Source of the DNA: Bdellovibrionales bacterium | GTDB taxonomy: Bacteria > Pseudomonadota > Alphaproteobacteria > JAIXQD01 | Assembly (NCBI GenBank): GCA_050248995.1 | Contig: JBFWRI010000002.1 | Coordinates: 17,355 to 81,354 of the forward strand | Direction of reading: 5' to 3' | Length of the DNA stretch: 64,000 bases | In this document: piece by piece, positions 8,766 through 32,347 of the stretch | Layout: every line of letters starts with the position of its first letter | Position numbering within the stretch: the stretch's first letter is position 1 | Notes under the pieces: generated by a model | Told to the model about the DNA's origin: nothing | The model's database searches: none | The model's input: the letters and a program-made list of their open reading frames with translations, nothing else | Translations under genes and position numbers: made by a program

Positions 8766-8847
8766 AGTGCCCTCACTTTGCTTGAGTCAGCCGGTTTTAA
8801 CAGGTATTAAGCCGTCATCCAAGCACTTCTCTGTGCGGCGCAGCAAC

Positions 8848-13053: not shown

Positions 13054-13578
13054 ATGACTGAACCGGTAATCATCAAGAAGTACGCCAACCGCCGTCTTTA
13101 TAATACAGCTTCAAGCACCTACGTCACGCTTGAGACGCTGGCCGAAATGGTTCGTGATAATATCGATTTTATCGTCTACGACGCCAAGAGCGGCGAAGAC
13201 CTGACGCGCTCGGTGCTGACCCAGATTATCGTTGAACAGGAAGCTAAGGGCACCAACCTGCTGCCGATCGGGTTCCTGCGCCAGTTGATCAGCATGTACG
13301 GCGGCAATATGCAATGGGCCGTGCCGGGCTATCTTGACGAGATGATGAAGCACTTCGGCGAACAGCAGAAGCAGCTGCAAAGCACCTTCCAGCAAAGTTT
13401 CGGCAAACTATTCCCACCGGGCTCGCCCATGGAAGCCATCAGCAAACAGAATATGGCCCTGTTCGAACAAATGGCCGGCTTCTTCATGCCGTTCAAGCAA
13501 GCGAACGACAAAGAGCGTGAAGAGACGCTGAACGCGTTGAAGCAAAAAATGTCGAGCATGGAACGCGGCGAAAGCTAG
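13054..13578 (+). CDS. phaR: Polyhydroxyalkanoate synthesis repressor
   Basis: The N-terminus IIKKYANRRLYNTASSTYVTLETLAEMV is the conserved PhaR DNA-binding region. The gene is divergent from the phaC side of the locus. Confidence 0.85.
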   Translation: MTEPVIIKKYANRRLYNTASSTYVTLETLAEMVRDNIDFIVYDAKSGEDLTRSVLTQIIVEQEAKGTNLLPIGFLRQLISMYGGNMQWAVPGYLDEMMKHFGEQQKQLQSTFQQSFGKLFPPGSPMEAISKQNMALFEQMAGFFMPFKQANDKEREETLNALKQKMSSMERGES

Positions 13579-14354
13579 GCTTCCGGTTTCTCGCCTGCGG
13601 CACTCTTTTTCTGCCGGCGCGCTGCATTATCCGGCGCTATCTGTGCATAATTGAATTTAATACCAGCCGCCTTCAATGTGGCGATGTTACCTGCGCTGCG
13701 GATACCTTCCAGAACCACGTCTTTGCCGTTAGCTCTGACAACCGCCGATATCTGTTTCATCATGGCAAGCGGCGGTTTTTCCGGGGTTCTCAGGGCCGCA
13801 CCGACATCCCGGCCGGAAAACTTCAGGCCATCGCTAAGCCCAACAATCGGTGAGACAACATTGGTATTTTTCCAGCGCCCCCTTGGATAATCATCCAGCA
13901 GGATTTTCCCGCCAGCGCGGTGCACGGCATCAATAAATTTGTACAGGTCTTTATCAGCGATGCCGAGTCCTTTTTCAGTCAGCTCGGCTTTCAGGCGCTT
14001 TGCAGCTTTCGGATAGTTCGCCAGCATGGCCGCAACGTTCTGTACAAAGCGCGGCTGGGCCGCTGATTGCGGGGAAATATTCGCGCTCAAGACTTCCTTA
14101 TGGCTTTTATCAAGTGTCTGCAGGACCAGTTCAAGATTGATTGCATCAAACCACTCTGTCTCACCGGTTTTCTCAAGTGCGCAGACGATGTGTCCTGACG
14201 TGCCAAGCTGGTTCTGCGTGAACAACGGATGCTCTAGGAAAGCCTCATCATACTTGTGCTCCATCGACTGGCCGTTCACCGCATAAATTGGGGCCCGGTC
14301 CAAGCTGAATTTTGCTGGGTCGATTTCCGCGTAAGCGTCCGGGATACGGTACAT
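13575..14354 (-). CDS. Standalone degenerate EAL-like domain protein
   Basis: ILLDDYPRG aligns with the EAL DDFGTGYS block. GLKFSGRDV resembles the KIDxSF block. VVLEGIRSAGNIATLKAAGIKFNYAQ resembles the AEGVE...QG block. The catalytic EAL/E residues are not conserved. Confidence 0.45.
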   Translation of the reverse strand: MYRIPDAYAEIDPAKFSLDRAPIYAVNGQSMEHKYDEAFLEHPLFTQNQLGTSGHIVCALEKTGETEWFDAINLELVLQTLDKSHKEVLSANISPQSAAQPRFVQNVAAMLANYPKAAKRLKAELTEKGLGIADKDLYKFIDAVHRAGGKILLDDYPRGRWKNTNVVSPIVGLSDGLKFSGRDVGAALRTPEKPPLAMMKQISAVVRANGKDVVLEGIRSAGNIATLKAAGIKFNYAQIAPDNAARRQKKSAAGEKPEA

Positions 14355-16408: not shown

Positions 16409-17356
16409 CTAGAATTTGGTTGATTTGGCCGCACTCATACGAGCCGTCTGCTTGTCGATGAACGTATTGATCATACCGATGCGGTTCTCGCGGATAAGCG
16501 CCCGGATCGGGTCACCGTTATTGCGCTCTTCAGTGAAGATATAACGAATGAACGGGCCTGTGGCGCCCAGCGTCTGGTGCAGGGCCGCCGTGATCCCGGT
16601 GGCCATAATGGCCGCCGCGCCGCCGCCCATTGTCTGTTCGGCCAAGTGCAAAATACCGTACATGCTTTCTTCAATCGAGCCCGCATGAACGGTAGTAATG
16701 ACAAGGTGGCCGGTTGTGGCGGCACGCAATACCTGCTCGGCTGCCCGCGGGGTACGAATTTCTCCGACCAGCAGATAGCGGGGCGTCCAGCGCAGGCTGC
16801 TTTTAATGGCCTTGGCCCAGTCGTCTTCCTCATGGACCTGTACCTGATAACAGAAGCCGTTGTTGCCTACAGCACCGTCCAGTACATATTCCACAGGGTC
16901 TTCGATAGTCAGGGCTGTGCCGCCATGGCGCTTTAAAAAATCATTCAGTAACGAGAAGGCCGTTGTTGTTTTACCCGCACCGGTAGCGCCTGAAATAATA
17001 ACCAGGCCATCGCGACGGCCCAGCATTCTAAGGTTCTGAATGATGTGCGGGGCAAAACCAAGCTGCTCCATCGTCTGAACACCGGCGTTGATACGACGCA
17101 GCACCGCCCATGTTTCGCCGTTCGCCATCGTATTCACCGACACGCGGTAGCGGATGCTGGCGAAGGTGAAAATTCCTTCTTCTTTATCAAATCGTTCTTT
17201 CAGGTCCTGCGTCAGCAGAATGACATCCGGCAAAGCGGTCTGAGGAACGGGCAGGTTTGGATGGCCGGTTTCGCGTGCGGCCGGACGGTAACGTGCCGGC
17301 GACTGCCCGTCGAGCCGGACATAGAGATCCATCACATTCAAATCATTGAGACGCAT
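16409..17356 (-). CDS. PilT/VirB11-family secretion NTPase with no partner genes nearby
   Basis: Walker A is GATGAGKTT. The Asp/Glu box is TIEDPVEY, Walker B is LLVGEIR and the His box is ITTVHAG. 315 aa, with no adjacent pilus or T4SS genes. Confidence 0.7.
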   Translation of the reverse strand: MRLNDLNVMDLYVRLDGQSPARYRPAARETGHPNLPVPQTALPDVILLTQDLKERFDKEEGIFTFASIRYRVSVNTMANGETWAVLRRINAGVQTMEQLGFAPHIIQNLRMLGRRDGLVIISGATGAGKTTTAFSLLNDFLKRHGGTALTIEDPVEYVLDGAVGNNGFCYQVQVHEEDDWAKAIKSSLRWTPRYLLVGEIRTPRAAEQVLRAATTGHLVITTVHAGSIEESMYGILHLAEQTMGGGAAAIMATGITAALHQTLGATGPFIRYIFTEERNNGDPIRALIRENRIGMINTFIDKQTARMSAAKSTKF

Positions 17357-17437: not shown

Positions 17438-18784
17438 ATGAGCCAAATTATTCAACCCCGCACCCCTTCCGGCGTTATGGAACTGCTGCCGCGTGACCAG
17501 ATCGCCTTCCAGCGCATCCTGGATATCATACGCTTGAACTACGAACGTTATGGCTTCCTGCCAATCGAAACACCTGTATTTGAAGTGGCCGATGTCCTGC
17601 TGACCAAATCTGGCGGCGAGACCGAGAAGCAAGTCTATTTTGTGCAGAAGACAGGCTCGCTGGAACAGGGCCGCAAGCCCGAGCTTGCGTTACGCTTCGA
17701 CCTGACGGTACCTCTTGCCCGCTATGTAGCCGAACATGAACATGAACTTGCATTTCCGTTCCGCCGTTACCAGATCCAGCGTGTATATCGCGGCGAACGT
17801 ACCCAGCGCGGCCGTGCCAACGAATTCTACCAGTGCGATATCGACATTATCGGCAAGGATAGCCTGAGCCCTGCTTACGATGCTGAATTGCCGGCTATTA
17901 TCAATGACGTCTTTACACAACTTGCTTTTGGGCCGTTCACCATCTGGTTCAGCAACCGCAAGGTCATGCTGGGTTTCCTGCAGGCGAATGGCATCCCGGT
18001 CGAAGCGCAGACACTGGCATTGCGCGAGCTGGACAAGCTGGACAAGAGCACGCCTGAGAAAGTCGCAGCAGCGCTTGTCGCTGCCGGACTGACCAGTGCG
18101 CTGGCCACACAGCTCATGGAACTCGTTCAGCCCGCCAGCAGCAATGATGAAGTCTTGAACCGCATTGCCCGACTGCCGCAGTCGGGCACATTGGCTGAAG
18201 GATACGAAGAATTGCAAATCATGTGCGACGCACTGGCTGCGCAGGGTGTGCCACCGAAGAACGCGCGCCTGAACCTCGGCATCATCCGCGGCCTCGATTA
18301 CTACACCGGCACGGTTTACGAAACCAAGATGGATGACCACCCCGAATTCGGGAGTGTATGTGGCGGCGGCCGGTATGACAACCTCGCCGGCTATTACACC
18401 AAATCGAAACTGCCGGGGGTGGGCCTTTCAATCGGCGCCACACGCCTGTTCGAACATTATCATGCCGCCGGCTTTTTTGCCGACACGCGCAGCACGATCC
18501 AGGTGCTGGTGACGGTGATGGACGAAACACTGCTGCCTGACTACTTGAAGATCGCTCACACATTACGGCAGGGCGGGCTTGCAACCGAGGTCTTTCTGGA
18601 CGGCGGCAAGATGGCAAAACAAATGAAATACGCTGATCGCGCCGCTATCCCCGTCGCTGTCGTCATGGGCGGCGATGAAAAGTCCAAAGGCGCCGTCACC
18701 GTGAAGAACATGAAAACCGGCAGCCAGATAGAGTGCAAGGCCGGCGACATACTGGCCACTGTAACCGCTGAACTGAAGAAATGA
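17438..18784 (+). CDS. hisS: Histidyl-tRNA synthetase
   Basis: Class II aaRS motifs are MELLPRDQ, FDLTVPLARY, YQIQRVYRGERTQRGR...FYQCD and GGGRYDNL, with a C-terminal anticodon-binding domain. The start is at internal Met 17438; the longer ORF from 17045 would overlap the divergent ATPase gene. Confidence 0.85.
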   Translation: MSQIIQPRTPSGVMELLPRDQIAFQRILDIIRLNYERYGFLPIETPVFEVADVLLTKSGGETEKQVYFVQKTGSLEQGRKPELALRFDLTVPLARYVAEHEHELAFPFRRYQIQRVYRGERTQRGRANEFYQCDIDIIGKDSLSPAYDAELPAIINDVFTQLAFGPFTIWFSNRKVMLGFLQANGIPVEAQTLALRELDKLDKSTPEKVAAALVAAGLTSALATQLMELVQPASSNDEVLNRIARLPQSGTLAEGYEELQIMCDALAAQGVPPKNARLNLGIIRGLDYYTGTVYETKMDDHPEFGSVCGGGRYDNLAGYYTKSKLPGVGLSIGATRLFEHYHAAGFFADTRSTIQVLVTVMDETLLPDYLKIAHTLRQGGLATEVFLDGGKMAKQMKYADRAAIPVAVVMGGDEKSKGAVTVKNMKTGSQIECKAGDILATVTAELKK

Positions 18785-21777
18785 GCGTCTGGCACACTCT
18801 TAGCCGCGTCGTTCTGACGACAATCTGGGTCGTCATAATTGCGGCGGTCATTTATGCCATTCACTACGAACTAACAACAAGCCGCCTGCAGGCCGAGCTG
18901 TTCTCGCGCTATGCTAAAAATATGACGTATGAGCTGCAGGACGGCCCCAACCCGAATCTGCCCTATCCCGAAGGCGGTCCATACGATGTGCGCCTGGGCT
19001 ATACTCGTCTACCCAAGATGCTCGACACTTTAACTGTGCAGGGTTTCAAGATCATTCGCCAGCCCCGCCTCTCGCAGCCGCTACAGGAATTCATGGCTAT
19101 GGGCGGGTATGCGATATACCCGGAAAAAACCAGTGCCGGCATCACCATTCTGGGCGCTCAGGGTAACGAGCTGCACAGCCGCCGCTTTCCGACCCGCACC
19201 TTTGCGGACTATGATGAGATACCTCCCCTGGTCGCACAGACGCTTCTGTTCATCGAAAACCGCGAACTACTGGACCCGGCGACGCCGTACCGCAACCCGG
19301 CTGTTGAATGGGATCGCTTCCTGTTCGCAGCGCTGGGCCAGCTGGTGAAAGTACTCAATCCGGGCATGAATATCGGCGGCGGCAGCACACTGGCAACACA
19401 GATCGAAAAGTTCCGTCACTCGGACGAAGGTCGTACGGGCGGCATCCACGACAAACTGATCCAGATGCTATCAGCCTCGGTGCGCGCTTACCGTCAAGGC
19501 CCTCTGACCATGGAAGAACGTAAACGCGTTGTTCTGGATTATATGAACAGTACGCCGCTGACAGCCCGCGCTGGTCTTGGTGAAGTCAACGGCCTTGGTG
19601 ACGGCCTGTGGGCGTGGTTTGGTACAGAACTGAATGATGTCATTGATATGCTGTCCCGTCAGGCTAATGATGTCGAGACCTTCACGCGACAAGCCGAACT
19701 ATATAAACAGGTGCTGGCCCTGTTACTGGCGCAGCGTCGCCCGTCTTACTACCTGATTACCGATCGCGAAGCATTGAATGAACTTGCCAATACTTATCTG
19801 CAACTGCTGTCAACGGCCGGGATTATCACCCCCGCCTTGCAGAAAGTCGCAACGTCATCACCGCTGCGTTTTTCAAGTGAAGTCCATATTCCCGGCGGCG
19901 AAGACTTTGTAGCCCTGAAGGCGGCTAACGCCGTGCGGCTGGCGCTGCTGCGCACTCTCAACCTGAACAGTCTGTATGAACTGGATCGCATCGATGCAAC
20001 GGTTCACAGCACGCTTGATAGCGAAAAGCAGGACAAAGTCATCAGCCTGCTGCAAGACTTGATGGATAAATCGAAGCTGGAAGAACATGGCCTGATCGGT
20101 GAGAATCTTTTGCGGACCGACAATGATGTCAGTAAGGTTATTTACAGTTTTGTGCTGTACGAGCGCACACCTTTCGGCAACGTCGTTCGTGTTCAGGCCG
20201 ATAACCTCGACAAGCCGCTTGATCTGAATGAAGGCGCCAAGCTTGATCTGGGGTCAACCGCCAAGCTGCGCACGCTTGAAACATACCTTAGCGCCCTGGC
20301 CGACCTTTATGACCGTTATAAACAGCTGCAAAAAGCCGATCTGCAGATTGCTCAGGATGACGCAGCCGATAATCTGACGCGCTGGGTAGTCGATATGCTG
20401 CGCGCCTACCCCGATATCACGTTACAGCAGCTACTGGCATCGGCCATGACACGGCGCTATTCCGCCAGCACAAATGAAACATTTTTTACGGGCGGCGGCG
20501 CTCACACGTTTGTAAACTTCCAATCAACCGATAATGGCAAGGTCGTTTCAGTTCAGGAAGCCCTGCGCATGTCGATCAACCTGCCGTTCGTGCGCCTGAT
20601 GCGCGATGTGGTTGGCTATTATATCGCGCAAGGGCCGATTGCGCGGCGCGACATACTTGGTAACCCTGATAATCCTGCGCGCCAGGCCTATCTGGCCCGC
20701 TACGCCGATCGTGAAGGACGCACTTTCCTGAACCGTTTCTACAACGCTTACAGGAACCTGACACCTGAGGCTGCACTGGACAGACTGGCTGGCCGTGGCC
20801 GAAAGACGTGGGAAGCACAGGCAACCATCTTCCGCAGCATCAAACCCAAAGCCGGCCAGACCGCCTTCCGCAACTTTATGACGGCGCGCATGACAACGCT
20901 TGGTCTGGCCACCCCGACTTTTGAGGAAGCAAGCGCACTATACGAAAACTATGGCATGGATAAGTACAACCTTGCCGACCGGGGCTATATCGCCGGCGTC
21001 AACCCGCTGGAGCTTTGGCTTGCCGCCTATATGCAAAGCAACCCCAAGGCATCGCGCGACCAGATCCTGCAGGCCAGCGTTGAAGAGCGCCAGGCTGCCT
21101 ATGAATGGCTATTCCGCACAGGATACAAGGGCGCACAGGATACGCGCATCCGTATCCTGCTGGAGCAGGATGCCTTCAACCGCATCCACCAACACTGGGA
21201 AAAACTTGGCTACCCGTTCGACCACCTTGTGCCGTCACTGGCGACATCCATTGGCAGCAGCGCTGACCGGCCGGGCGCACTGGCCGAGCTGATGGGCATC
21301 ATTCTGAATGATGGCATCCGCATGCCGACAATCCGCGTCAGCGAAATCGAATTCGCCAAGGGCACGCCCTATGAAACGCTGTTGCGCCGCGATGGCGCCC
21401 AACAGGTGCAGGGTGAACGCGTCATACGCAGCGAGGTTGCACAGACATTGAAAGCCGCGCTGGCCGATGTGGTGGAAAACGGTACCGCTAAACGCATGAA
21501 AGGCGTTGTTGTCGACGGCGCGGGCCAACCCGTACCTATTGGCGGCAAGACGGGCACAGGCGACCACCGCTTTGAACTGTTCGGCCCCGGCGGCCGCCTG
21601 ATCTCGTCGCGCGCCGTCGCCCGCACGGCAACGTTCGTCTTCTATCTGGGCGATAAATACTTCGGAACCATTACCGCGCACGTTGAAGGCGAAGAAGCCG
21701 ACAAATACGAATTCACCAGCGGTATGGTGTCGCAGGTCCTTAAAACAATTATCGGAAAAATCGGCCCGCTGTATTAG
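18781..21777 (+). CDS. Class A penicillin-binding protein, PBP1C-like (GT51 transglycosylase plus transpeptidase)
   Basis: It has an N-terminal TM anchor. GT51 motifs are GGGSTLATQIEKF (compare GGSTITQQ) and EERKRVVLDYMN (compare KEEILELYLN). The transpeptidase motifs are STAK, STN and KTGTG. The ATGA overlap with the hisS stop indicates translational coupling. Confidence 0.7.
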   Translation: MSVWHTLSRVVLTTIWVVIIAAVIYAIHYELTTSRLQAELFSRYAKNMTYELQDGPNPNLPYPEGGPYDVRLGYTRLPKMLDTLTVQGFKIIRQPRLSQPLQEFMAMGGYAIYPEKTSAGITILGAQGNELHSRRFPTRTFADYDEIPPLVAQTLLFIENRELLDPATPYRNPAVEWDRFLFAALGQLVKVLNPGMNIGGGSTLATQIEKFRHSDEGRTGGIHDKLIQMLSASVRAYRQGPLTMEERKRVVLDYMNSTPLTARAGLGEVNGLGDGLWAWFGTELNDVIDMLSRQANDVETFTRQAELYKQVLALLLAQRRPSYYLITDREALNELANTYLQLLSTAGIITPALQKVATSSPLRFSSEVHIPGGEDFVALKAANAVRLALLRTLNLNSLYELDRIDATVHSTLDSEKQDKVISLLQDLMDKSKLEEHGLIGENLLRTDNDVSKVIYSFVLYERTPFGNVVRVQADNLDKPLDLNEGAKLDLGSTAKLRTLETYLSALADLYDRYKQLQKADLQIAQDDAADNLTRWVVDMLRAYPDITLQQLLASAMTRRYSASTNETFFTGGGAHTFVNFQSTDNGKVVSVQEALRMSINLPFVRLMRDVVGYYIAQGPIARRDILGNPDNPARQAYLARYADREGRTFLNRFYNAYRNLTPEAALDRLAGRGRKTWEAQATIFRSIKPKAGQTAFRNFMTARMTTLGLATPTFEEASALYENYGMDKYNLADRGYIAGVNPLELWLAAYMQSNPKASRDQILQASVEERQAAYEWLFRTGYKGAQDTRIRILLEQDAFNRIHQHWEKLGYPFDHLVPSLATSIGSSADRPGALAELMGIILNDGIRMPTIRVSEIEFAKGTPYETLLRRDGAQQVQGERVIRSEVAQTLKAALADVVENGTAKRMKGVVVDGAGQPVPIGGKTGTGDHRFELFGPGGRLISSRAVARTATFVFYLGDKYFGTITAHVEGEEADKYEFTSGMVSQVLKTIIGKIGPLY

Positions 21778-24700
21778 CGGTTTTTGGCAGCAGCCGGTTG
21801 TGCCTTGGCCGGCGCCTGCACCGACAGGCGCTGTTCCAGTTTCTTCAGGCGGTCTTCAAACTGCCTGTCTTTCACGTTCAGCTTCTGCTGCAGGCTGCCG
21901 TTTTCCTTCTTCAGCGCTGCATTCTCGGCTTTCAGCGCTTTCAGGTCGCCTTCCAGCGCGGCCAGACGCTTCTCAACGCTATCTTTCCAATCGAACAGCT
22001 GGGCGACCTTGGTTTGCAAGCCATCCACCATATCGATCAGCTTCTTGACGGCTTCGATGACCGGCAGCACCAACTTGTCGTATTGTACTGCCATAAAGCC
22101 TTTATCGTCACGGGTGATGACTTCCGGCAATACCTTCTCGACTTCCTGCGCGATCACACCGAAGTCGTCCTTATTATCCTTGTTCCACTTATAGTGAACA
22201 GCCTGCAGGCCTTTCACCACCAGGAAGGCATCGCGTTCGAAATTCTTCACATCATGCTTCAGGCGCGCGTCAGAGCTGTGGAAGTAACCGCCGGTCAGCA
22301 GGTTACCCGTAGCCGCAATAGCATAGCTGGCGTTCACAGCAGAGCCGTTCAGGCCGATCTTGCCGGTGAAAGTCACATCACCGCCGCTGGCTACGGTAAC
22401 ACGGGTTGTGTTTGTCGTACCAATCGTAACAGCAGCAGCTTCCTGCGCCACAATGCTAAGCGTACCAGTACCGCGATGGGTTAAAGTGCTGCCAGCGTTA
22501 GCGCCTGTATTATAACGAAGCAAGCGAAGACCATAATCGGTATAGGTATCATCGCCCACAAAGTCGATATAAGCATACCTGTTGCCCGAGCCCGCGGCGT
22601 TGACGGCAACCTCAGATGCAGAAATTGTGGTCGCGCTACTGGCTGTCAGCGAACCGGTGGCAGAGATAGCCCCCGTTACAGCAAGCGACGATGTTGTTAG
22701 CGTCGCATAAATCGAATTGTTGATGTACCAATAGTGCGCCGTGTCATTGCGATGGCGGTAGGCCCAGTTACCATCAGCGTCCAAAAAGCCGATATCATTG
22801 CTGCTGTTACCATAAACACGACCGCGCAGGGTGCCATCGCTGGTGCGCAGACCCAGGTTTACAACAGAGGCATCATTTGATTGGAGACTGAATAGAGAGG
22901 CGTTATCGCCATACATATATTGCGCGCCTGCAGCGCCGAACTTCAGGTAGTTACTATAAACGTGGACCCCACCGTCAACACGCAGGTTGCCAGGCGTATA
23001 AACACCACTGGTGAAGGCGCCGCCCTGGTTCAGGCGCAGCCAGCTGTCGTTGCTGCGGAAGGCTTCCTTGCCCTGCAGGTTGACGTTGTTGCCGGTTACC
23101 GCCAGCTTAGCCACACCGTCGGTTGTGATGGTCACCGTACCAGTACCGGCATCCACCACTTCCACACTGCTGTCACCCTCGCTGATGGTGTCGGTGGCTA
23201 CCGTGCCGGTAATGGTGCCGCTGACCGTCAGGTCGCCTGTGATGTTGGTGTTACCGGCCACGTTCAGCTTATAGGCGCCCGGATCCGAGATACCGACGCC
23301 AACGTCGCCATCGGCGGCAATACGGATACCCTTGGCGCTGGCCGACCACTGGCCGATTGTCAGGCCGCCATTTTCAACGGTGCCGCTTGAATAGACCAAT
23401 GTGCTGTCGCCAGCCACGACCATCGGGTTCCACGAAGCGCCAGTGCTGTTCGGGTTAATCGCGGTCCATTGCGTGCCATCCGTGGTGCGGATACCCCATG
23501 TCGCCGTCGCGCCCGTACCACGCTGTACGTTCAGACGTGAGCTGCTCATCGAGGTAGTGCCAAGACCAACGTCACCATTGTAGTCAAGGCGCATGCGCTC
23601 GGTTACCGACGCTGCGCCATCGGCTGTTGTGTAGAATACCAGTTGGCCCGGCATATCGTTGGTGCCGGGCGTTGTGCCGACTTCGGCCGTGATGCGCGCT
23701 GTCTCGATCGCCGTAGCGCCATCATAGGCATAGTAGCGAAGGTAACCGACATCGTCGCCCGAGCTGACGGCAGCCGCCGTGGTTGTATCACCACGGTATT
23801 TATAGAAGTTGAAGGTTCCCGGTGTTGCGTCATTGCTGTTGCGCTGCGCCATGAAGCCTGAGCCACCGGTCTCGCCACGCGAACGTATATAGGCGTTGCT
23901 AAGTGTAGTAGCGCTGCTTTGCAGTATGTCTATGGCGTAAGCGGGGCCAGTGGTGCCCATACCCAGGCGGCCACCACCCGTGAAACGGGCGATTTCGGCT
24001 ACCGTTGTATCGGTCGTGCCCGTTGAACCCCCACCATGGCCGCGAATGATGACACCCGAGCTACCGGTACCGGTCGCCGTACCACTGTTCAGGTACAGCC
24101 AGCCGCCATTGGTATCGGTTGCGCCGCTTTGTGCGCCACCGGCGGTAATGAACAGACTGTTGCCGGCGCCGCTTGACGCGCGTTCGATAGCGATGGTGCG
24201 GCTTGCACCCTGGCCAAGGGTAATTATTCCTGTCGTGGGGGCCGTCGTCGTACCGATACCCAGGCCCGTCGCGGTCAGGATCATCGCTGTGCTGCCGCCG
24301 CCCGAGTTATATTGCGTGGCGTTGTGGCTACCGCCGACATACCAGGCGAAGGCACTACCTGAACGGTTGTAAAGCGTGTTACTTTGCACGCCGATGCCGT
24401 AAGAAGCGTTGTACAGGTTGACCATCTGACGCACAGCAGCACCAAAGTTCAACTCGGCCGTGCCCACGATGTCGATATCATCAACATCAACCGTCAGCGC
24501 GGCAGTGCCGTCAGCTGTTACCGCGATGCTGCCGGTGCCTGCGTCGGTTACCGTAACGCTGCTGTCACCCTGCGTGATGCTGTTGCTGGCCACTGTGCCC
24601 GTTATGGTGCCGCTGACCGTCAGGTCGCCGGTGATGTTGGTGTTACCGGCCACGTTCAACTTATAGGCGCCGGGATCCGAGATGCCGATACCGATATCGC

Positions 24701-27700
24701 CGTCAGAGGCGATGCGCAAACCCTTGGCGCTGGCCGACCATGGGCCGATCGTCAACGCGCCGGTATCAATGCTGCCGTTGCTGTATGTTAACAGGAAGTC
24801 CCCTGCGGCTGTGAGTGTATTTGACGCGCCCGCCGATGCGTTGGGGTTGATTGATAAAAATTGCGTTCCATCGGTAAACTGCGCAGCTGCAGTGGCGCTG
24901 GCGCCGGCCGAACGTATAACATGCAGCTTTGTTGTTGGCGTTGATGTACCAACACCCACCAGGCCGGCCGCCGTTACGTTCAGCGGCAGTGAGCCTACGG
25001 CAGCACTTACGCCAATCCCCAGCACATCATCGGCTGCATCGGTCACATAGAAGTTGGCAAATGGGGTTGTGCCCGTGCCATCCGATTCACGAATAACAAA
25101 GCCATACTGGTCGTCTTCAGGTCGCACTTCGATCCAGCTTTGTGTTCCGCTTCCTGAAACCGTACTAATCACAAGAGAGCCGTTGGCAGCGGTGAAGAGA
25201 TCGGCGATTTCAACCGTTTCGGCGGCACCGCGGATGCGAATACCAGCCGAATTTGACATCGTATCAATATCCAACGGAGTGGCCGGTGACTGGCCGTTGA
25301 TACCGACATAGCCACTGTTGGCTGCAATCAGCGGCGTCACGGCGACGCCCGAAGTATTGGTTGTAATGATACTAATACCCGCAGCGACATAACTTGCACC
25401 TTGCGAAGCCGCAACAGCCTGAATCCATGCCGAGTTGCGGATGGTGCCGCCGCTATCGACGCCGCGGAACATCAAGGTGCCAAGGCCGTCCGATACGCTG
25501 ATGCTGTTATCCGACGGCCGCTTATCCAGAATGAAGTAGGGCCCGGTGGCGTCGGTATTGGTGTTTATAAGAACAACCTGTGAGCCATATGACTGCGCAC
25601 TGCTCATCACGGCAACGCCGCCACTCATATACATCTGCTGCGTACCGCCCGCCGTGAAACCAAGACTGTTTTCACCAACACGGTACATACCCGTATCGTT
25701 GCTGGTATCAGATGCAAACGTATAGGCAGGTGCAGCCGCTGAACCATTGGGCGCATGGATAAAGGCCGTTGATGTAACCACGCCGGCCGTAACTGTCAGT
25801 TCATCAGCGCCGCCGTCGGCATCCAGCACGATGTTACCAGTGCCGGCATCCGTGACTGTGGCATGGCTATCGCCTTCGGTGATGGCATTGCCCGAACCGC
25901 CACCGCCACTAAGAGAATTCAGCGCGGTCCAGCTGCCGCCGCTGTCTTTGTATTCAATCGCACCGGCGTTATCACGGATACCGTAACCTGTGCTGCCAAC
26001 CGTACTATCGAAGTTGATATAGCCGCTGGCCGGATGAACAACGTTGCCCGTAAAAGTGGCCTCGCCGTTCGTTAGATTGATCGTGAAGACATGTGCTTCG
26101 AAAGCGGTTGCCGCCGCGTTCCAGCGCGACAGGTAGAAGACATCGTCCCACGACTGGATATTCATTGCCTTGCCGTTGGCACCATTGTTATCGAGGAACG
26201 CCATATTGGCGCGGATCAAGGCAGCGCCATTTACGTCAAGCTTCATGGCCGGAGAATCGGTGCCGATGCCTACATATCCGGTTGCTGAGTCCGCCGCCAT
26301 GATGGGGTTGTGAACAACGCCACTGAACGAGTCGGTTGTATCCTGCAACAACAACTTGCCAGCGCCATTCAGCGCCCAACGGAAACCTGTTCCGTTAGCT
26401 TGAAGAAGTTCGATATCCGCGTAGTCAGAAGACGAGCGAATGACGCCAGCCACATCAAATTTCGCAGATGGGGTTGATGTGCCCACACCCACATTACCGG
26501 CTGCTGTAATATTAAATGGCAGCGAGCCTGCCGCCGCATTTACACCAATGCCCAGCACATCATCCGTAGTATCTGTGACATAGAAGTTGGCATAGGTAGT
26601 CAACGTAGAACCGTCTGATGCCCGCAGAATAAGGCCCGACGCATCGTCTTCGCCCCGCAGGTCAATATAACTGCTTGTTCCGGTGCCGCCCTTGGTGCTG
26701 ATAATTAAAGGACCGTTCGCGCCGACAAAAAGATCGGCGATTTCAACCGTTTCTGCCAAGCCGCGCAGACGCAATCCCGACGAGTTTGAAGCGGTATCAA
26801 TATCCAGCTTCGCGCCACTAGCACTGGCTGTGCCGATCGCCACGTTACCGGCCGGCATCAGGGCAATATCGCCGGCGTCAGTCGACAGGCGGAACTCAGC
26901 GCCGTTACTCATTGCCAGCAGGCCGTAACGGTCATTGCCTGTATCGTAGAGCTGCACGGTCTTGCCGTCACGCATATCGAACGACGAATTCATGCGGATA
27001 TCGCCGCTGCTGGCGGCAATCGCCACGCTGCCGCTGTCATCAAGGTTGAAATCAAGATTAACCGCGCCATCCAGCGTGATGGTGCTGCCGCTGTTGCTGA
27101 TGATTTCACCGGCAGCCAGCGTTAACGGAACAGCCGCTGTAATGCCGCCGGTCAAAGCCGTCATTACCGCAACACCATCAACGGTTGTTACAACGCTGCC
27201 CGTGCCGGCGTCGGTAACGACGACGCTGCTATCACCCTCGCTAATGCTTGTCGTACTACCGCCACCACCGCAACCGGTGCAGGTACCGCTAACCGTCAGG
27301 TCACCAGCGATAGTGACGGTGCCATCCGATGCGATTGTCAGTCGGTTATCTGTGCCGTTTGTCTTAAACGCCATCAGGTTGGTGGCGTGGTCATAGCGGA
27401 TTTGGCCGACGTTATCATCGGCATCATCGCCGAACATGATGTAGTTCATATTCGCAGCCGGTGACAGGAAGTTCAGTGCGATGTCGGCGTCATCTTCTAT
27501 GGTTATCCCGTTTGAACCATATCCGTGCGGCGTACCGCCACTGGCGCCACTGTATATATGCAGCTTGGCCAGTGGGGTGATCGAGCCACCGATACCAACC
27601 CGGCCGCTGCTGTTAATGCGCATGCGCTCGGTTACCGAGCTGGCGCCATCAGCTGTGGTGAAGAACATCAGGCGGCCTGGCATATCGTTGGTGCCTGGCG

Positions 27701-30458
27701 TTCCGTCAACGGCCGCATAAATCTGCGCCCCAGGAATACCCGCCGCGCCATCATAGCCATAGAACGTCATATAACCAAGGTGATCACCCGACTGTACGAT
27801 TGAACTGTTGCGATACTTATAATAAGCCAGGCCGCCACCCGATGCGTCGTTTGATGTGTCAACAACCTGATAACTGGCGAAGTTGTCACTTGTTACCCGA
27901 ACTGTAGAGTTGGCGCCGGAGCGGTATACGTTCAGGGCCGCGCCATTCGCCGCGCCGCCGATGCCCACATCACCGCTGGCGTCGATGCGCAGGCGCTGCG
28001 TACCGGCGGTTGCAAAACTCAGCTCGTCTGTACCGCTCAGATACATGCCGTTCGTGTCATCTGACGTAAAGCTATAACTGGGCGCAGCGGCCGAACCGTC
28101 AACCGCCAGCACGCGCACGCCGGTATCATCACCAATGGTGCCACCGTCAACATCGTCACCGCTAACGGTCAGCACCGCCGGCGCCCATGCGCTGCCATTA
28201 TATTTCAGGTACTCACCGCTATTCGGGTCGGTGGTTGAAACCGCTATACCCTGAATGGCGTCCACAACCGTGGTCAGCGTAATGTTGCCCGTGCCATCGA
28301 ACGAAACGCCTGTTGCATCAGCGTCACCGCTGGCGCCGATGGTGCGGGCTGTCTGCAGGGCGGTCGCCGTGCTGGCGTTACCCGTTAAGGCGCCGACAAA
28401 ACTGGACGCCGTAACAGCGCCGGTTGTGCCGTCGATCGTCATGCGGTCCACACCGTTAGTGCGGAAAATAAGGTTGCCTGTGCCCAGCGACGCCATACGC
28501 AGGTGGCCGTTACCGCTGGCACCATAGGCCGAGATTTCAACCGGTGTCGTGGTGCTGATGCCGCCGGTCATGCGGAAGCTGCGATCTGCACCGGCCGTAC
28601 CGGCGATGCGCGCCTGTTCTTCGTTGTTGATCTTGAAGATGATCAGACCGTCTGCATCGTCAACTTCGACGCCACTGTCGCCGTCGCCAATGGTGGAGCC
28701 ACTTGATACAGCGGCCCAGGTGCCGTCACCCCGCAGGAACAGGTTTTCTTCGCCCGCCGCTGGAACCGGCACACCGCCTAGCGTCCCGTCATCACCCGAC
28801 GTTGCCCCGCTAAAGGCCGGGACTTCCGATTGCATGATAGCGGCAGCCGTGTAGGCACCCGCACCGGTGCGTTTTACGAACCCCGTGCTCGAAAGGCCGG
28901 CAAGACCAGCAAGTTCAGCACTATAGGCCTGCACGTCACTGCCAATCGCCACACCCAGATTGGTGCGAGCGCCCGCGGCTGTGCCAGCCCCTGTACCGCC
29001 TGATGCCACTGGCACCACACCTGTAATATTACTGCCATCCACACTGCCGGCACTGCCCGACACGTTACCGGTCACGTTACCCGTCAGGTTGCCAACGAAG
29101 TTCGTGGCGGTGATCGATCCGTCCGCCGTGATATCTCCGGTTACGCCCAACGATGCTGCTGTAATGTCGGTAGCAGCAAGATCGCCCACTGTCGCATCGC
29201 CGGCCGTCAACGCACCCAGTGTGGTCGCCCCGGTTACGCCAAACGTACCGGTGACTGTGGCGTTCGTTGTTACACTTAGCGAGTTAAGTGTTGAAAGGCC
29301 GCTTGAGGCTAAGGTTGTGGTCGATGTCGCGCCCAGTGTCGTGGCGCCAGCTGTCAGTGCCGCCAGCGTTGTTGCGCCATCCACTTCCAACGTGCCCGAT
29401 AAACCCGCATTCGTTCCTGAAATGTCGGTAACAACGCTAAGCGCCGCACCGCCGGTGCCACCAATGCTACCTGTGGTAATCGACGTAGCGCTGAAACTGT
29501 TGGCGCTGGCAACTGCCACAGCCGTATCGCCTTCAACCAGCAAGTCACCGTTAACAACCAGATCACCACGGAAGCGACCGTCACCACCAATGTCCAGGCT
29601 TTTACTGGTATCAACACTGGCCGTATCAAGACCGACGGCCACACGCGCCGACGAAGGATCAATACCGAAACCGAATGTACCACCGCCCTGCGCCTGCCAT
29701 GTGGCGCTGCGAGCCATCACGTTAGCGACCGACATGAATTCGACCTTATCGTCGCTGCCGCTGGCCGGCAGGTTATCGGTCGCATCATCGCAATCGGTGG
29801 CCAGAATGCCGTCAGCGCCAGCTGAAATGATGGCGATTGAGGGTTGATCGCGATCGGCCTGCAAATTTTCCCAGCGGCACATGATGTAATAGCGACCCCA
29901 CGGGTCAAGCTGGCGCACACCGCCATCGGTCGGGATCGCGCCGACAGACTCGGCCGCACCCTGCGCAGCCACTTCGGTGATGGCAACGCTGCCGCCGGAA
30001 TCTTTCGGGATGCGCGCCGCGTCAAGCGTGTTCCAGGCGACAACAGCCGGCGGATCAAGCGTTAGCGTTCCACTGTTCATCAGTGAGCGTGACGACACGA
30101 CTTCGCTGGCCATGCGAATCTGGTTACGCACCGAGTTGTCAGCGGTGATTTCCACATTCGAACGCAGAATTTGTGTGTAGCCGGTGAACAGTACCGTACC
30201 CGCGATACCAGCCAATGCGATGATGTACAGAATGGGCGCCAGCGCGAAACCAAGCATCATCCGCGCGGCCCACGATTTTTGCGGGCGCGCACGCGCACAA
30301 TTCGAGAGGCGCGATGCTTTTTTCATGACATGCCATTTTAAGGCCAAACGGGTTAACAGCTCCTTATCTCGTGCATTTATCGTCTTGAAGCGGAACGATT
30401 TTGGTGAATGAACGGTAAAAAATGGGCAGCTTTTGAGCTTTCCCGCCGGTCTATGCAC
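21774..30458 (-). CDS. Giant 2894-aa modular fibre protein with three parts:
- a TadE/TadG-like N-terminal membrane anchor;
- a long Gly/Thr/Ala/Ser/Asp-rich repetitive fibre;
- a C-terminal S74-type tail-fibre intramolecular chaperone domain plus coiled coil
   Basis: The N-terminus has a basic stretch followed by MMLGFALAPILYIIALAGIAGTVLF, which resembles the TadE_N pseudopilin motif. The body has repeated GT(S/A)GTG and TDAGTGS units and large internal duplications. The C-terminus HSSDARLKHDV...FGVIAQEVEKVLPEV...VQYDKLVLPVIEAVKKL matches the endosialidase/tail-spike chaperone (Peptidase_S74) pattern. A heptad coiled coil LAALEGDLKALKAENAALKKEN follows. The start could be at 30326 (MKKASRL...) or 30260. 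Confidence 0.8.
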   Translation of the reverse strand: MHRPAGKLKSCPFFTVHSPKSFRFKTINARDKELLTRLALKWHVMKKASRLSNCARARPQKSWAARMMLGFALAPILYIIALAGIAGTVLFTGYTQILRSNVEITADNSVRNQIRMASEVVSSRSLMNSGTLTLDPPAVVAWNTLDAARIPKDSGGSVAITEVAAQGAAESVGAIPTDGGVRQLDPWGRYYIMCRWENLQADRDQPSIAIISAGADGILATDCDDATDNLPASGSDDKVEFMSVANVMARSATWQAQGGGTFGFGIDPSSARVAVGLDTASVDTSKSLDIGGDGRFRGDLVVNGDLLVEGDTAVAVASANSFSATSITTGSIGGTGGAALSVVTDISGTNAGLSGTLEVDGATTLAALTAGATTLGATSTTTLASSGLSTLNSLSVTTNATVTGTFGVTGATTLGALTAGDATVGDLAATDITAASLGVTGDITADGSITATNFVGNLTGNVTGNVSGSAGSVDGSNITGVVPVASGGTGAGTAAGARTNLGVAIGSDVQAYSAELAGLAGLSSTGFVKRTGAGAYTAAAIMQSEVPAFSGATSGDDGTLGGVPVPAAGEENLFLRGDGTWAAVSSGSTIGDGDSGVEVDDADGLIIFKINNEEQARIAGTAGADRSFRMTGGISTTTPVEISAYGASGNGHLRMASLGTGNLIFRTNGVDRMTIDGTTGAVTASSFVGALTGNASTATALQTARTIGASGDADATGVSFDGTGNITLTTVVDAIQGIAVSTTDPNSGEYLKYNGSAWAPAVLTVSGDDVDGGTIGDDTGVRVLAVDGSAAAPSYSFTSDDTNGMYLSGTDELSFATAGTQRLRIDASGDVGIGGAANGAALNVYRSGANSTVRVTSDNFASYQVVDTSNDASGGGLAYYKYRNSSIVQSGDHLGYMTFYGYDGAAGIPGAQIYAAVDGTPGTNDMPGRLMFFTTADGASSVTERMRINSSGRVGIGGSITPLAKLHIYSGASGGTPHGYGSNGITIEDDADIALNFLSPAANMNYIMFGDDADDNVGQIRYDHATNLMAFKTNGTDNRLTIASDGTVTIAGDLTVSGTCTGCGGGGSTTSISEGDSSVVVTDAGTGSVVTTVDGVAVMTALTGGITAAVPLTLAAGEIISNSGSTITLDGAVNLDFNLDDSGSVAIAASSGDIRMNSSFDMRDGKTVQLYDTGNDRYGLLAMSNGAEFRLSTDAGDIALMPAGNVAIGTASASGAKLDIDTASNSSGLRLRGLAETVEIADLFVGANGPLIISTKGGTGTSSYIDLRGEDDASGLILRASDGSTLTTYANFYVTDTTDDVLGIGVNAAAGSLPFNITAAGNVGVGTSTPSAKFDVAGVIRSSSDYADIELLQANGTGFRWALNGAGKLLLQDTTDSFSGVVHNPIMAADSATGYVGIGTDSPAMKLDVNGAALIRANMAFLDNNGANGKAMNIQSWDDVFYLSRWNAAATAFEAHVFTINLTNGEATFTGNVVHPASGYINFDSTVGSTGYGIRDNAGAIEYKDSGGSWTALNSLSGGGGSGNAITEGDSHATVTDAGTGNIVLDADGGADELTVTAGVVTSTAFIHAPNGSAAAPAYTFASDTSNDTGMYRVGENSLGFTAGGTQQMYMSGGVAVMSSAQSYGSQVVLINTNTDATGPYFILDKRPSDNSISVSDGLGTLMFRGVDSGGTIRNSAWIQAVAASQGASYVAAGISIITTNTSGVAVTPLIAANSGYVGINGQSPATPLDIDTMSNSAGIRIRGAAETVEIADLFTAANGSLVISTVSGSGTQSWIEVRPEDDQYGFVIRESDGTGTTPFANFYVTDAADDVLGIGVSAAVGSLPLNVTAAGLVGVGTSTPTTKLHVIRSAGASATAAAQFTDGTQFLSINPNASAGASNTLTAAGDFLLTYSNGSIDTGALTIGPWSASAKGLRIASDGDIGIGISDPGAYKLNVAGNTNITGDLTVSGTITGTVASNSITQGDSSVTVTDAGTGSIAVTADGTAALTVDVDDIDIVGTAELNFGAAVRQMVNLYNASYGIGVQSNTLYNRSGSAFAWYVGGSHNATQYNSGGGSTAMILTATGLGIGTTTAPTTGIITLGQGASRTIAIERASSGAGNSLFITAGGAQSGATDTNGGWLYLNSGTATGTGSSGVIIRGHGGGSTGTTDTTVAEIARFTGGGRLGMGTTGPAYAIDILQSSATTLSNAYIRSRGETGGSGFMAQRNSNDATPGTFNFYKYRGDTTTAAAVSSGDDVGYLRYYAYDGATAIETARITAEVGTTPGTNDMPGQLVFYTTADGAASVTERMRLDYNGDVGLGTTSMSSSRLNVQRGTGATATWGIRTTDGTQWTAINPNSTGASWNPMVVAGDSTLVYSSGTVENGGLTIGQWSASAKGIRIAADGDVGVGISDPGAYKLNVAGNTNITGDLTVSGTITGTVATDTISEGDSSVEVVDAGTGTVTITTDGVAKLAVTGNNVNLQGKEAFRSNDSWLRLNQGGAFTSGVYTPGNLRVDGGVHVYSNYLKFGAAGAQYMYGDNASLFSLQSNDASVVNLGLRTSDGTLRGRVYGNSSNDIGFLDADGNWAYRHRNDTAHYWYINNSIYATLTTSSLAVTGAISATGSLTASSATTISASEVAVNAAGSGNRYAYIDFVGDDTYTDYGLRLLRYNTGANAGSTLTHRGTGTLSIVAQEAAAVTIGTTNTTRVTVASGGDVTFTGKIGLNGSAVNASYAIAATGNLLTGGYFHSSDARLKHDVKNFERDAFLVVKGLQAVHYKWNKDNKDDFGVIAQEVEKVLPEVITRDDKGFMAVQYDKLVLPVIEAVKKLIDMVDGLQTKVAQLFDWKDSVEKRLAALEGDLKALKAENAALKKENGSLQQKLNVKDRQFEDRLKKLEQRLSVQAPAKAQPAAAKNR
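23165..23375. repeat. Intragenic repeat A, copy 1; about 90% identical to 24556-24766
   Basis: Read directly from the sequence. The shared stretch is gctgaccgtcaggtcgcc...ggtgttaccggccacgttca...ataggcgcc.ggatccgaga...cccttggcgctggccgacca. It encodes SDPGAYKLNVAGNTNITGDLTVSGTITGTVA in the giant protein. Confidence 0.8.
24556..24766. repeat. Intragenic repeat A, copy 2
   Basis: Lies 1391 bp from copy 1, which is about 465 aa in the protein. The short plus-strand mirror ORFs 23011-23274 and 24460-24666 end in nearly identical peptides, confirming the duplication. Confidence 0.8.
24900..25300. repeat. Intragenic repeat B, copy 1; related to about 26470-26830
   Basis: The shared stretches are gatcggcgatttcaaccgtttc, ggtatcaatatcca and gcagc.cttac.ccaat.cccagcacatcatc...atagaagttggca. 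It encodes the module LR(L/I)RG(L/A)AETVEIADLF...ANFYVTD..DDVLGIGV. Confidence 0.7.
26470..26830. repeat. Intragenic repeat B, copy 2
   Basis: See copy 1. The spacing is about 1570 bp. Confidence 0.7.
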
Positions 30459-30591: not shown

Positions 30592-30668
<77 letters not shown>

Positions 30669-30685: not shown

Positions 30686-32347
30686 TTAGAAGCCTTTGGG
30701 TGGCGCTGGCGTAAACAGCCCATAGTCGTTATTCAGAACACGACGGCGCGGGCTGGCGGCCTGGCTGGCAGCTTCAGGCGTATTCAGTTCGACAGCAGCG
30801 CGATGCAGGTCTAGCGGCGCGCCAACCAGCGCCTGAAGATCACCAAGATTATAAGCAACGTTCTCGGCCGTAGCCGCAAGCTGGCCAGCCGTATCCGCAT
30901 CGATATTCACGCGCATATCATTACCAACACCATTGGCGCTACCACCAAGCAATGCCGCATCTTGCGGAACTGCATAGGGCGCTGATGGTTGCAAGCCATC
31001 AAGCAGCGACGGGTTAACCGGGATTGCCTGCAGCATTTCATACTGAAGTTTCTGGGCGCGCGCCTGCAGAGCAGCGGCGTCCTGTAAATGAAGCATGTTG
31101 TTCGGCACAGCCCCGAAGTATGCGCCTGCCGCAACATCCGGAATTTTTATTTTATTGCCGGCGGCGATTTCTTTCATCAGCGCGGTGCCGTATAGCGGCG
31201 ACTTACCGCTTATTTCTGAATCAAGCACATTCGAGAACTCGGCCGAGGCTTTTTCCATAGCATCAGCAACAGCTCCCAGTTTAGCATCCTGCGCGATTCC
31301 CGGGGGGACACCTTCACCTTCGTAGACATCGTAGATTTCATCAACTTTCTGAATCAGTTCACGCGCCTTGTTGGCTGATAATGGTTCGCCTGTCACATCA
31401 TCTTTGATAGCATGCCGAACGCGCTCAAGCTCGTAAGTAGCTATCGCATCGTTCATCGCAGTGACAAAAGAGGCCTGTTCTTCAGGCGACAATAAGTTTG
31501 CAAGCGCAGCCTGAAGTGTGTCATCAAGGTTATTAGTATATGACACATCACCATCGAGGTCAGCGACACCGGCTATTGCATTTAAGTCGCCTACATTTAA
31601 GCCGTTTGCGCCATCACCAACGACACCACGTGCATGTAACGGCGAGACAGGGACGCTAGGGTCGTTATCAACATCCGGACCTAGGCCGATGCGATTGAAG
31701 CCCGGAGAGACATTAGCGGGAAGATCGTCATCAAGGTCAGGCCGGGGGCCGAGGCCGTCCGGTTGCGGTTTGGTGGAATTCTGTTTTGCACCAGCGCCGG
31801 GCTTGCCGCCTTTGTTCTTGTTAAAAAACTTCAGCAGCGGTTTAAGAACCCAGTGGAACAAGACAATCGCCAGACAGACGAGCGCTGCACCCGATGTAAA
31901 GCTGGCAAGCAGGCCGGACACTGACATTGCTGCGCCAGCATTTCCACCAATACCGAATAACGTCAGAGCCTGCGGCGGCAACATCCCGATCACCACATTG
32001 CTGGTCAGGGCAACAGCCGCACCGCCACCAGCGATCATGGCACCGTTAGAAACCAGTACGCTTCTAAATTCCAAATCTTTCTTTTGCTTCGCTGCTGCTT
32101 CCGATGCGGCCGCATTGTTGGCCAGCGCTGCTTCTGTTGCCGCGCCGCTTTGTGCCTGAATCTGTGCTTGCTGGGCAAGCAGGTGCATCATCTGTTCATG
32201 GCGCGCATCAGCGGCTTCATTTGCTTCGCGCGCCTGCTGCTCCATCCGCGCCGCGAAATCGACAGGCGTCCCCGCTGCCGGCGCCGCAGCATTACTTGCG
32301 GGTGGTGCTTGTGTTCGAGGATCTTGCGTTGTTGTTACCAAAGCCAA
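30686..32347 (-). CDS. Hypothetical Ala/Gly-rich membrane protein (553 aa)
   Basis: It uses a TTG start with no clear SD. The Ala/Gln-rich N-terminus is followed by 2-3 TM helices (GAMIAGGGAAVALTSNVVIGML and LVCLAIVLFHWVL) and a long acidic soluble region. I see no family motif. The gene is separated from its neighbours by AT-rich spacers. Confidence 0.55.
   Translation of the reverse strand: MALVTTTQDPRTQAPPASNAAAPAAGTPVDFAARMEQQAREANEAADARHEQMMHLLAQQAQIQAQSGAATEAALANNAAASEAAAKQKKDLEFRSVLVSNGAMIAGGGAAVALTSNVVIGMLPPQALTLFGIGGNAGAAMSVSGLLASFTSGAALVCLAIVLFHWVLKPLLKFFNKNKGGKPGAGAKQNSTKPQPDGLGPRPDLDDDLPANVSPGFNRIGLGPDVDNDPSVPVSPLHARGVVGDGANGLNVGDLNAIAGVADLDGDVSYTNNLDDTLQAALANLLSPEEQASFVTAMNDAIATYELERVRHAIKDDVTGEPLSANKARELIQKVDEIYDVYEGEGVPPGIAQDAKLGAVADAMEKASAEFSNVLDSEISGKSPLYGTALMKEIAAGNKIKIPDVAAGAYFGAVPNNMLHLQDAAALQARAQKLQYEMLQAIPVNPSLLDGLQPSAPYAVPQDAALLGGSANGVGNDMRVNIDADTAGQLAATAENVAYNLGDLQALVGAPLDLHRAAVELNTPEAASQAASPRRRVLNNDYGLFTPAPPKGF

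Follow-up and report, generated by a model that had tools for sequence, protein, structure and literature searches.

A giant fibre protein with a divergent type IV pilin-like head and a Peptidase_S74 end in an uncultured alphaproteobacterial lineage

The window analysed here is a stretch of 64,000 nucleotides (64 kb) from a genome labelled 'Bdellovibrionales bacterium' (assembly GCA_050248995.1, contig JBFWRI010000002.1, positions 17,355 to 81,354), and the element in question is a gene on its minus strand that encodes a giant fibre protein of 2,850 amino acids (aa). The protein displays a four-part architecture, composed of a leader, a pilin module, a shaft of ~2,440 residues and a Peptidase_S74 domain followed by a coiled coil, and this architecture is kept across the family to which the protein belongs. 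The coordinates of the gene, of its parts and of the neighbouring features are collected in Table 1; residues are numbered along the 2,850-aa protein unless the 2,894-aa numbering, introduced below, is stated.

The fibre gene and the parts of its product

The gene lies in an uninterrupted open reading frame (ORF) spanning positions 21774 to 30458, which in the ORF listing amounts to 2,894 aa when counted from the first GTG. The NCBI protein P0001, titled 'MAG: tail fiber domain-containing protein [Bdellovibrionales bacterium]' (MAG, metagenome-assembled genome), starts at the ATG at 30326 and is 100% identical to the window ORF; the version from the Logan assembly starts at 30347 and is 2,857 aa long, being 100% identical across 2,850 aa. 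The single long ORF described in a first-pass annotation of the window, made from the letters alone, is thereby confirmed. Besides 30326, in-frame ATG codons at 30347 and 30260 are candidates for the start, and the in-frame stretch upstream of the likeliest one (30327-30458) is probably not translated.

Judged from its sequence, the C-terminus is a true Peptidase_S74 chaperone/protease domain, followed by a coiled coil. Specifically, the Pfam family PF13884 matches with an E-value of 5.3e-13 and 49.5 bits against a cut-off of 22 (aa 2729-2780 in the 2,894-aa numbering), and a search of the Protein Data Bank (PDB) with the last 196 aa retrieved the ICA domain of MYRF (7dc3) at E 1.3e-7 and, at E 0.006, the long tail fibre of a phage (6f45). 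The Ser-Lys motif SDxxxK, as defined for the S74 domain (PMC10769870), appears as SDARLK at aa 2685-2690, Ser2685 (22272-22274) being the predicted catalytic and cleavage residue and Lys2690 (22257-22259) its partner in the motif. SDxxxK is kept in 14 of the 15 homologues with the same head, and the exception, P0014, has no S74 end. As for the coiled coil, in the best heptad register of the last 90 residues hydrophobic residues occupy 60% of the a/d positions, which none of 2,000 shuffles attained, and the homologues gave weak matches to coiled-coil families. Both the S74 chaperone and the heptad coiled coil after it, as read in the first-pass annotation, were thus borne out.

The shaft, with 47% of its residues being Gly, Ala, Thr or Ser, had been described as a succession of low-complexity repeats. 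It proved instead to be modular, with duplicated and diverged modules that share 43-64% protein identity in a self-comparison and 71-78% DNA identity (pairs aa 780-927/2114-2270, 1137-1292/1638-1803 and 1788-1999/2251-2473). Of the motifs quoted for it, TDAGTG is present three times and a 28-aa block, SDPGAYKLNVAGNTNITGDLTVSGTITG, twice, and GT(S/A)GTG does not occur. Two PHROG tail-fibre families were matched (phrog_9942, 1.8e-57; phrog_18345, 6.5e-35). In addition, local matches were obtained in 227 phage records, using as a query the C-terminal 1,075 aa (the shaft from aa 1776, the S74 domain and the tail). Since these phage matches are local, with at most 20% of the query spanned by any of them, the comparison indicates that the shaft modules share ancestry with phage tail fibres and that there is no close phage donor.

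At the opposite end, the protein carries a basic stretch and a hydrophobic helix, MMLGFALAPILYIIALAGIAGTVLF. The ~210 residues that follow the leader are the most conserved region of the large family, and position counts were made on 96 non-redundant family members, with leader statistics on the 71 sequences that begin at a start residue. The leaders are basic and variable, with a median length of 17 aa (range 6-35) and a median net charge of +3. Gly at -1 is invariant (96/96), as are Leu at +7 and Gly at +14, with Phe at +1 in 92 and Tyr at +24 in 80 of the sequences. The register of Gly-1, Phe+1, Gly+14 and Tyr+24 is the one seen in canonical type IV pilins, and the short basic leader ending in Gly, followed by about 20 hydrophobic residues starting from Phe/Met, is that of a type IV pilin. 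At position +5, where type IV pilins usually have Glu, none of the 96 sequences has this residue: 83 carry Pro and 11 Ala. In the window protein the predicted prepilin-peptidase cleavage falls between Gly26 (30249-30251) and Phe27 (30246-30248); the alpha-1 helix, with Pro at +5 instead of Glu, Gly+14 and Tyr+24, spans aa ~29-79, and the globular part contains the motifs LDPWGRYYIMCRW and SAGADG, plus two invariant cysteines.

An AlphaFold model of the head built on 41 sequences (a model from 11 sequences had a pLDDT of 46) displays a predicted fold resembling GspG and type IV pilins, that is, a lollipop with an alpha-1 helix of ~50 residues on an antiparallel beta-sheet. Foldseek searches with this model gave no significant match in the PDB and no match among predicted viral structures. 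At the sequence level, Pfam and NCBIfam returned no match for the N-terminal 236 aa, even at E ≤ 10. A profile search of the PDB with the head found type IV pilins only (Geopilin), with the cleavage site in register and at non-significant E-values of 0.2-1. T2SSG, the Pfam family of GspG, is the sole one matched by more than one of 41 members, reaching a sub-threshold level in 11 of the 41 (best E 0.0023). An hhalign comparison of the head with a GspG sequence placed G|F, DPWG..Y and GADG collinearly, at a probability of only 7%. Neither the profile match nor the operon context that define GspG was found for the window protein, which gave no T2SSG (PF08334) match and has no gsp genes among the neighbours tested. 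Our conclusion is a divergent head module, akin to type IV pilins and GspG, that has a prepilin-type leader and Pro in the place of Glu5 and contains no TadE/TadG domain; we treat it as working or folding like GspG and do not count it as a GspG member.

The absence of a TadE/TadG domain bears on the first-pass annotation, which had taken the N-terminus for a TadE/TadG-like pseudopilin anchor. The pilin-like character stands, and the family assignment was rejected: no TadE_N match (PF07811) was found in the protein or in 41 family members at E ≤ 1, and no tad gene is present in the window. Flp/Tad leaders follow the motif G/XXXXE(Y/F), which is missing here, with Pro at +5 and the Tyr at +8. 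Furthermore, the best fold matches and the best sub-threshold sequence matches are GspG and type IVa/IVb pilins. These observations make it quite improbable that the head is a TadE/TadG-like pseudopilin fused to the fibre, and processed and displayed by a Tad/Cpa system, even though such a system could lie elsewhere in the genome, of which 64 kb are visible, and would suit an alphaproteobacterial lineage, indicated by TrcR in the window and in agreement with the MAG labels. Tad/Cpa is the commonest type IV filament in alphaproteobacteria. In the Micavibrio aeruginosavorus genome paper, a Flp pilin is listed among the most highly expressed attack-phase genes (PMC3189940).

Table 1. Positions in the 64-kb window of the fibre gene, of the parts of its product and of neighbouring features
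Feature	Position	Strand	Description
Fibre protein coding sequence	21774..30326	-	2,850 aa; stop codon 21774-21776; likeliest start ATG 30326
Class III-like (prepilin-type) leader, aa 1-26	30249..30326	-	MKKASRLSNCARARPQKSWAARMMLG; basic, ends with the invariant Gly-1
Pilin-like module, aa 27-236	29619..30248	-	Long alpha-1 helix, then beta-sheet globular part
Fibre shaft, aa 237-2679	22290..29618	-	Gly/Ala/Thr/Ser-rich; diverged duplicated modules; patchy phage tail-fibre homology
Peptidase_S74 intramolecular chaperone/auto-protease, aa 2680-2775	22002..22289	-	PF13884, IPR030392
Heptad coiled-coil tail, aa 2776-2850	21777..22001	-	In the fragment predicted to leave after self-cleavage
Second EAL protein	13575..14354
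PAS-GGDEF-EAL protein	14418..16145
T2SSE/PilT-like ATPase	16409..17356	-	315 aa
Class A penicillin-binding protein-like (PBP1-like) protein	18781..21777	+	998 aa
tRNA-Val(gac)	30592..30668	+
Membrane-looking ORF	30686..32347	-	553 aa
DotA/TraY-family protein	32463..35897	-	1,144 aa
EF-G	57050..59128	-

Family, organism and gene neighbourhood

The head profile was searched against 1.84 billion proteins, leading to the identification of 310 cluster representatives at E ≤ 1e-3, 130 of which at E ≤ 1e-30. Among the best 150 of the 310 representatives listed, the head match lies at or near the N-terminus. The family members range from 455 to 5,301 aa in length, and at least 40 representatives end in S74, so that the homologue check proposed in the first-pass annotation found the same fusion of head and S74 end recurring in the family. 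The 4,607-aa member P0004 is encoded on OZ251993.1, a complete chromosome of 1.64 Mb. In the minimal member, P0028 (455 aa, on a metagenome contig of 2,745 nt), a stalk of ~100 aa separates the pilin-like head from the S74 domain, after which comes a coiled coil. Among the homologues P0005, P0010 and P0014-P0016, some carry the precomputed Pfam families PF26696 and PF10983 (DUF2793), and in P0010 a T4 Gp34 trimerisation domain is present (PF21446, 4.9e-17). The presence of these three families in family members indicates that the shafts are mosaics of different phage-fibre modules.

The recurrence of the architecture also bears on whether the gene could be an artefactual fusion, produced by mis-assembly or by a frameshift in the repeats, a condition under which the fibre interpretation was to be given up. 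The sequence does derive from a MAG, and errors are common in long repetitive genes. Nevertheless, the protein recovered through a second assembly pipeline, Logan, is 100% identical, identity among the internal DNA repeats is no higher than 71-78%, and the order head-shaft-S74 is found in at least 40 representatives, including the short P0028. Since the repeats are too diverged to collapse and the architecture is present in dozens of independent assemblies, we give an artefact of this kind next to no credence.

A scan of 185,579 species genomes detected 40 loci in 40 species-level genomes, all of them alphaproteobacterial MAGs, the labels of which include Micavibrio sp., M. aeruginosavorus and 'Bdellovibrionales bacterium'; the alphaproteobacterial predator Micavibrio is filed by NCBI under Bdellovibrionales. 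As far as seen, the family is thus confined to one group of uncultured alphaproteobacteria. The elongation factor EF-G encoded in the window shows at most 83% identity to any of 5.8 billion clustered proteins, the nearest ones being at 76-83%. Its identity to Micavibrio-labelled MAGs is ~77%, the same as for Rhodospirillales such as Inquilinus and Azospirillum, and an affiliation to Micavibrio was therefore not confirmed. These distances place the organism in a deep, uncultured alphaproteobacterial lineage, for which the label 'Bdellovibrionales bacterium' needs care. Because EF-G is equally near to Inquilinus/Azospirillum and to Micavibrio-labelled MAGs, a predatory lifestyle is to be taken as a lead, not as a finding.

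The fibre gene is flanked by housekeeping genes, encoding a penicillin-binding protein (PBP), HisRS, PFK and the ribosomal operon, the latter being read from the ORF layout at 44-60 kb, where EF-G is the sole gene tested. No phage genes were found among the tested neighbours, as already proposed in the first-pass annotation, and two upstream proteins gave no PHROG match. The gene is accordingly judged chromosomal and outside a phage context, and neither here nor in the relatives does it lie among phage structural genes. ORF clustering over the 40 relatives' loci returned only housekeeping neighbours (DUF2336, PRTase, UppP, DacC and phasin), with no pilus, secretion or phage genes consistently linked.

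The possibility has to be weighed, at this point, that the gene is the tail-fibre gene of a degraded prophage, a tailocin or another phage-derived particle. It could draw on the PHROG tail-fibre matches, on the local matches in 227 phage records and on the tRNA-Val just upstream. Against it stand the flanking PBP, HisRS, PFK and ribosomal operon with no other phage gene in the neighbourhood, a GC content only slightly higher than the window average, the conservation of the gene beside housekeeping genes in 40 species-level genomes, a head that matches none of the predicted viral structures, and the lack of any phage record covering more than 20% of the query. All together, these data render a phage origin of this kind very unlikely.

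Several features of the neighbourhood are reported in their own right. Directly upstream of the fibre gene, and on the opposite strand, is the tRNA-Val(gac); no riboswitch or other RNA element was found in this upstream region. The same tRNA is similarly placed in two relatives (L001, 9608-9684; L028, 5432-5506), one of them on a complete chromosome of 1.64 Mb. No integrase was seen, and the adjacency resembles conserved synteny more than the scar of an integration. Downstream, the fibre gene converges with that of an unusually long, class A PBP-like (PBP1-like) protein, which shows only weak transglycosylase and transpeptidase matches, and the stop codons of the two genes overlap by 4 nt. In the relatives, a DUF2336 gene (PF10098, E 7e-78; for example 7675-8775, plus strand, in L003) is located directly upstream of the fibre gene in ~24 of the 40 loci, usually on the same strand. 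The common order is PRTase(-)/DUF2336(+)/[UppP(+)]/fibre(+), synteny with DacC also being observed, and the window under study contains no DUF2336 gene. Literature searches on DUF2336, and on Peptidase_S74 in combination with pilins, yielded nothing useful.

A DotA/TraY-family protein is encoded farther upstream (TIGR04346, 226 bits; cut-off 100), and its gene is followed by a membrane-looking ORF with no Pfam, NCBIfam or PHROG match; the 64-kb window contains no further type IVB secretion gene. In the distant relative L028 a DotA-like piece (245-712) was found ~5 kb upstream of the fibre gene, with the tRNA-Val(gac) between them. Recurring in this one other locus only, the gene was rejected as a part of the fibre system, and it may represent an orphan DotA or a piece of an unrecognised system. 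Finally, among the genes of the window, only that of a T2SSE/PilT-like ATPase (131 bits against a PilT-family cut-off of 319) is related to type IV filaments. It is not next to the fibre gene and adjoins a PAS-GGDEF-EAL protein and a second EAL protein.

A proposed pilin-borne fibre

We lean, by a little better than even odds, towards reading the protein as a giant modular type IV pilin-like fibre. It would be a trimeric adhesin that resembles a tail fibre and is borne by a type IV filament, the tip being its probable location. In more general terms, the gene product probably serves adhesion at the cell surface, as a fibre that pilus-type machinery displays, and is not a part of a phage. The architecture is solid, and from it we infer a mechanism in which the N-terminal helix would insert in the inner membrane and the prepilin peptidase would cut after Gly26. 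The S74 domains of three chains would then nucleate the trimerisation of the shaft and, subsequently, cut themselves off at Ser2685, exposing the distal tip. [quoted passage not shown] There, by analogy with phage tail fibres and with the mosaic adhesive trimeric (MAT) fibres of Bdellovibrio, it could serve as an adhesin or recognition fibre for other cells or surfaces.

The cap and trimer steps of this scheme are suggested by published precedents. The type IV tip complex is capped by a subunit without Glu5, and growth of the filament starts at the tip and proceeds towards the base (PMC10191384); the tip pilins CofB and TcpB form homotrimers, and exposure at the tip is probable for modular pilins (PMC8179133); in the Bdellovibrio fibre Bd3182, S74 processing is needed for function (PMC10769870). 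A role as a cap would fit both the lack of Glu5, as in tip-capping pilins, and a homotrimeric state, as in CofB and TcpB.

A different explanation starts from the same helix, considered as an uncleaved signal anchor or as a module docking another envelope element; the fibre would reach the surface by a route other than type IV, and the pilin-like fold would be a relic used as an anchor. It is consistent with the absence of linked filament-machinery genes in 41 loci, with the missing Glu5 and N_methyl signature, and with the MAT fibres of Bdellovibrio, which sit on the surface via a conserved N-terminal domain without a named partner (PMC10769870). It does not account, however, for Gly-1 (96/96) and Phe+1 (92/96) being located exactly at the start of the helix despite leaders of 6-35 aa, which is what a prepilin-peptidase site predicts and which would serve no purpose in a simple signal anchor, nor for the conservation of the full predicted pilin fold including its globular part. 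For these reasons we regard the uncleaved anchor as unlikely, although it deserves more attention than the other alternatives.

The pilin-borne fibre has, for its part, a number of observations weighing against it. The prepilin N-methylation signature (PF07963/TIGR02532/IPR012902) is absent from the Pfam and NCBIfam scans of the protein, even at relaxed E-values, Glu5 is missing from the head, and the sequence similarity to pilins is below significance in the PDB search, in the T2SSG matches (which concern the relatives only) and in the hhalign comparison. No canonical prepilin motif was found anywhere in the 64-kb window, and no pilus, T2SS or prepilin-peptidase gene adjoins the fibre gene here or in the 40 relatives' loci. 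The folded shaft is estimated to be several times longer than the width of the periplasm, which is a difficulty for folding from the C-terminus and for the subsequent passage through a secretin. In addition, the link to the predatory Micavibrio derives from MAG labels only and is not settled by EF-G.

On a more tentative level, the protein could define a new class of type IV subunit: a GspG-like 'cap pilin' with Pro5 which, assembled by a phage-type S74 chaperone into a homotrimer in the periplasm, would prime a pilus or pseudopilus bearing a receptor-binding fibre of tail-fibre type, hundreds of nanometres long, used by uncultured alphaproteobacteria with small genomes, including Micavibrio-like epibiotic predators, to recognise and hold other cells. 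We hold this extended version possible, and on balance doubtful. If true, such a 'cap pilin' fibre would be the alphaproteobacterial counterpart of the MAT fibres, with the question of its attachment to the cell answered.

If the head does prime a filament, trimeric receptor-binding fibres of the tail-fibre type, with their self-cleaving chaperone, could be mounted on type IV filaments, so that the large toolkit of phage host recognition would be joined to that of pilus display. The fibre would then be a candidate cell-recognition adhesin for a poorly known group of alphaproteobacteria, Micavibrio-like predators included, and fibres of this sort would be prime candidates for determining prey or host specificity. 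As for annotation, the current signatures N_methyl and T2SSG overlook this pilin class because Pro replaces Glu5, and surveys of modular pilins therefore undercount such proteins.

Comparison with known systems

The first-pass annotation stated that the elements fused in this protein were not known to occur together. This was too strong, as both a 2021 survey of modular pilins and the work on the MAT fibres provide precedents. Specifically, type IV pilins with a C-terminal S74 domain (IPR012902-IPR030392) are listed in the database survey of Raynaud et al. 2021 (PMC8179133), with the same order of an N-terminal pilin module and Peptidase_S74 at the far end. Those proteins bear the canonical N-methylation/Glu5 signature, whereas the fibre family has Pro at +5 and no N_methyl match; the two groups are here set apart by description. 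In the survey the architecture is uncharacterised; S74 was read as a 'peptidase activity', no link was drawn to trimeric tail-fibre-like shafts, and the extreme size reported there is 860 aa, compared to up to 5,301 aa in the fibre family.

The MAT fibres of Bdellovibrio bacteriovorus, in their S74 subgroup (Caulton et al. 2024, PMC10769870), are likewise chromosomal, non-phage, tail-fibre-like trimers ending in an S74 chaperone/protease with SDxxxK, and in both cases a conserved N-terminal module holds, or is proposed to hold, the fibre on the cell, with variable and mosaic shafts and tips. The difference lies in the N-terminus, which in the MAT fibres consists of a Sec signal peptide and a beta-rich domain of ~130 aa without structural homologue, in contrast to the prepilin-type leader and predicted alpha/beta pilin fold of the fibre family, the comparison being made by description. 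Moreover, the MAT fibres are ~1,000 aa long, occur as 21 paralogues per genome and belong to a different phylum.

Among the tip pilins, CofB of the CFA/III pilus of enterotoxigenic Escherichia coli and TcpB of the TCP pilus of V. cholerae are encoded in pilus operons and carry short beta-repeat and beta-sandwich domains without S74. GspG (EpsG/PulG; T2SSG) is a protein of ~145 aa with Glu5, encoded in gsp operons and lacking a C-terminal extension, and the window protein reaches no T2SSG score. The phage fibres and tailspikes with S74, such as the K1F endosialidase, T5 pb1 and the S16 long tail fibre, are homologous in the C-terminal S74 domain and in patches of the shaft, and by analogy the same logic, trimerisation followed by self-cleavage, may apply. 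Their N-terminus binds the virion baseplate or tail, unlike the pilin module found here, which has no viral structural match and no phage context. With respect to Micavibrio, the genome paper describes, in the passages concerned, dispersed pil genes and a T2SS without annotated GspC, G, H and K, and its passages on pili, fiber, adhesin and secretion do not mention such a fibre (PMC3189940).

In conclusion, what sets the fibre protein apart from the known systems is its signature-negative pilin head with Pro5, together with its giant size, and its broad design has precedents.

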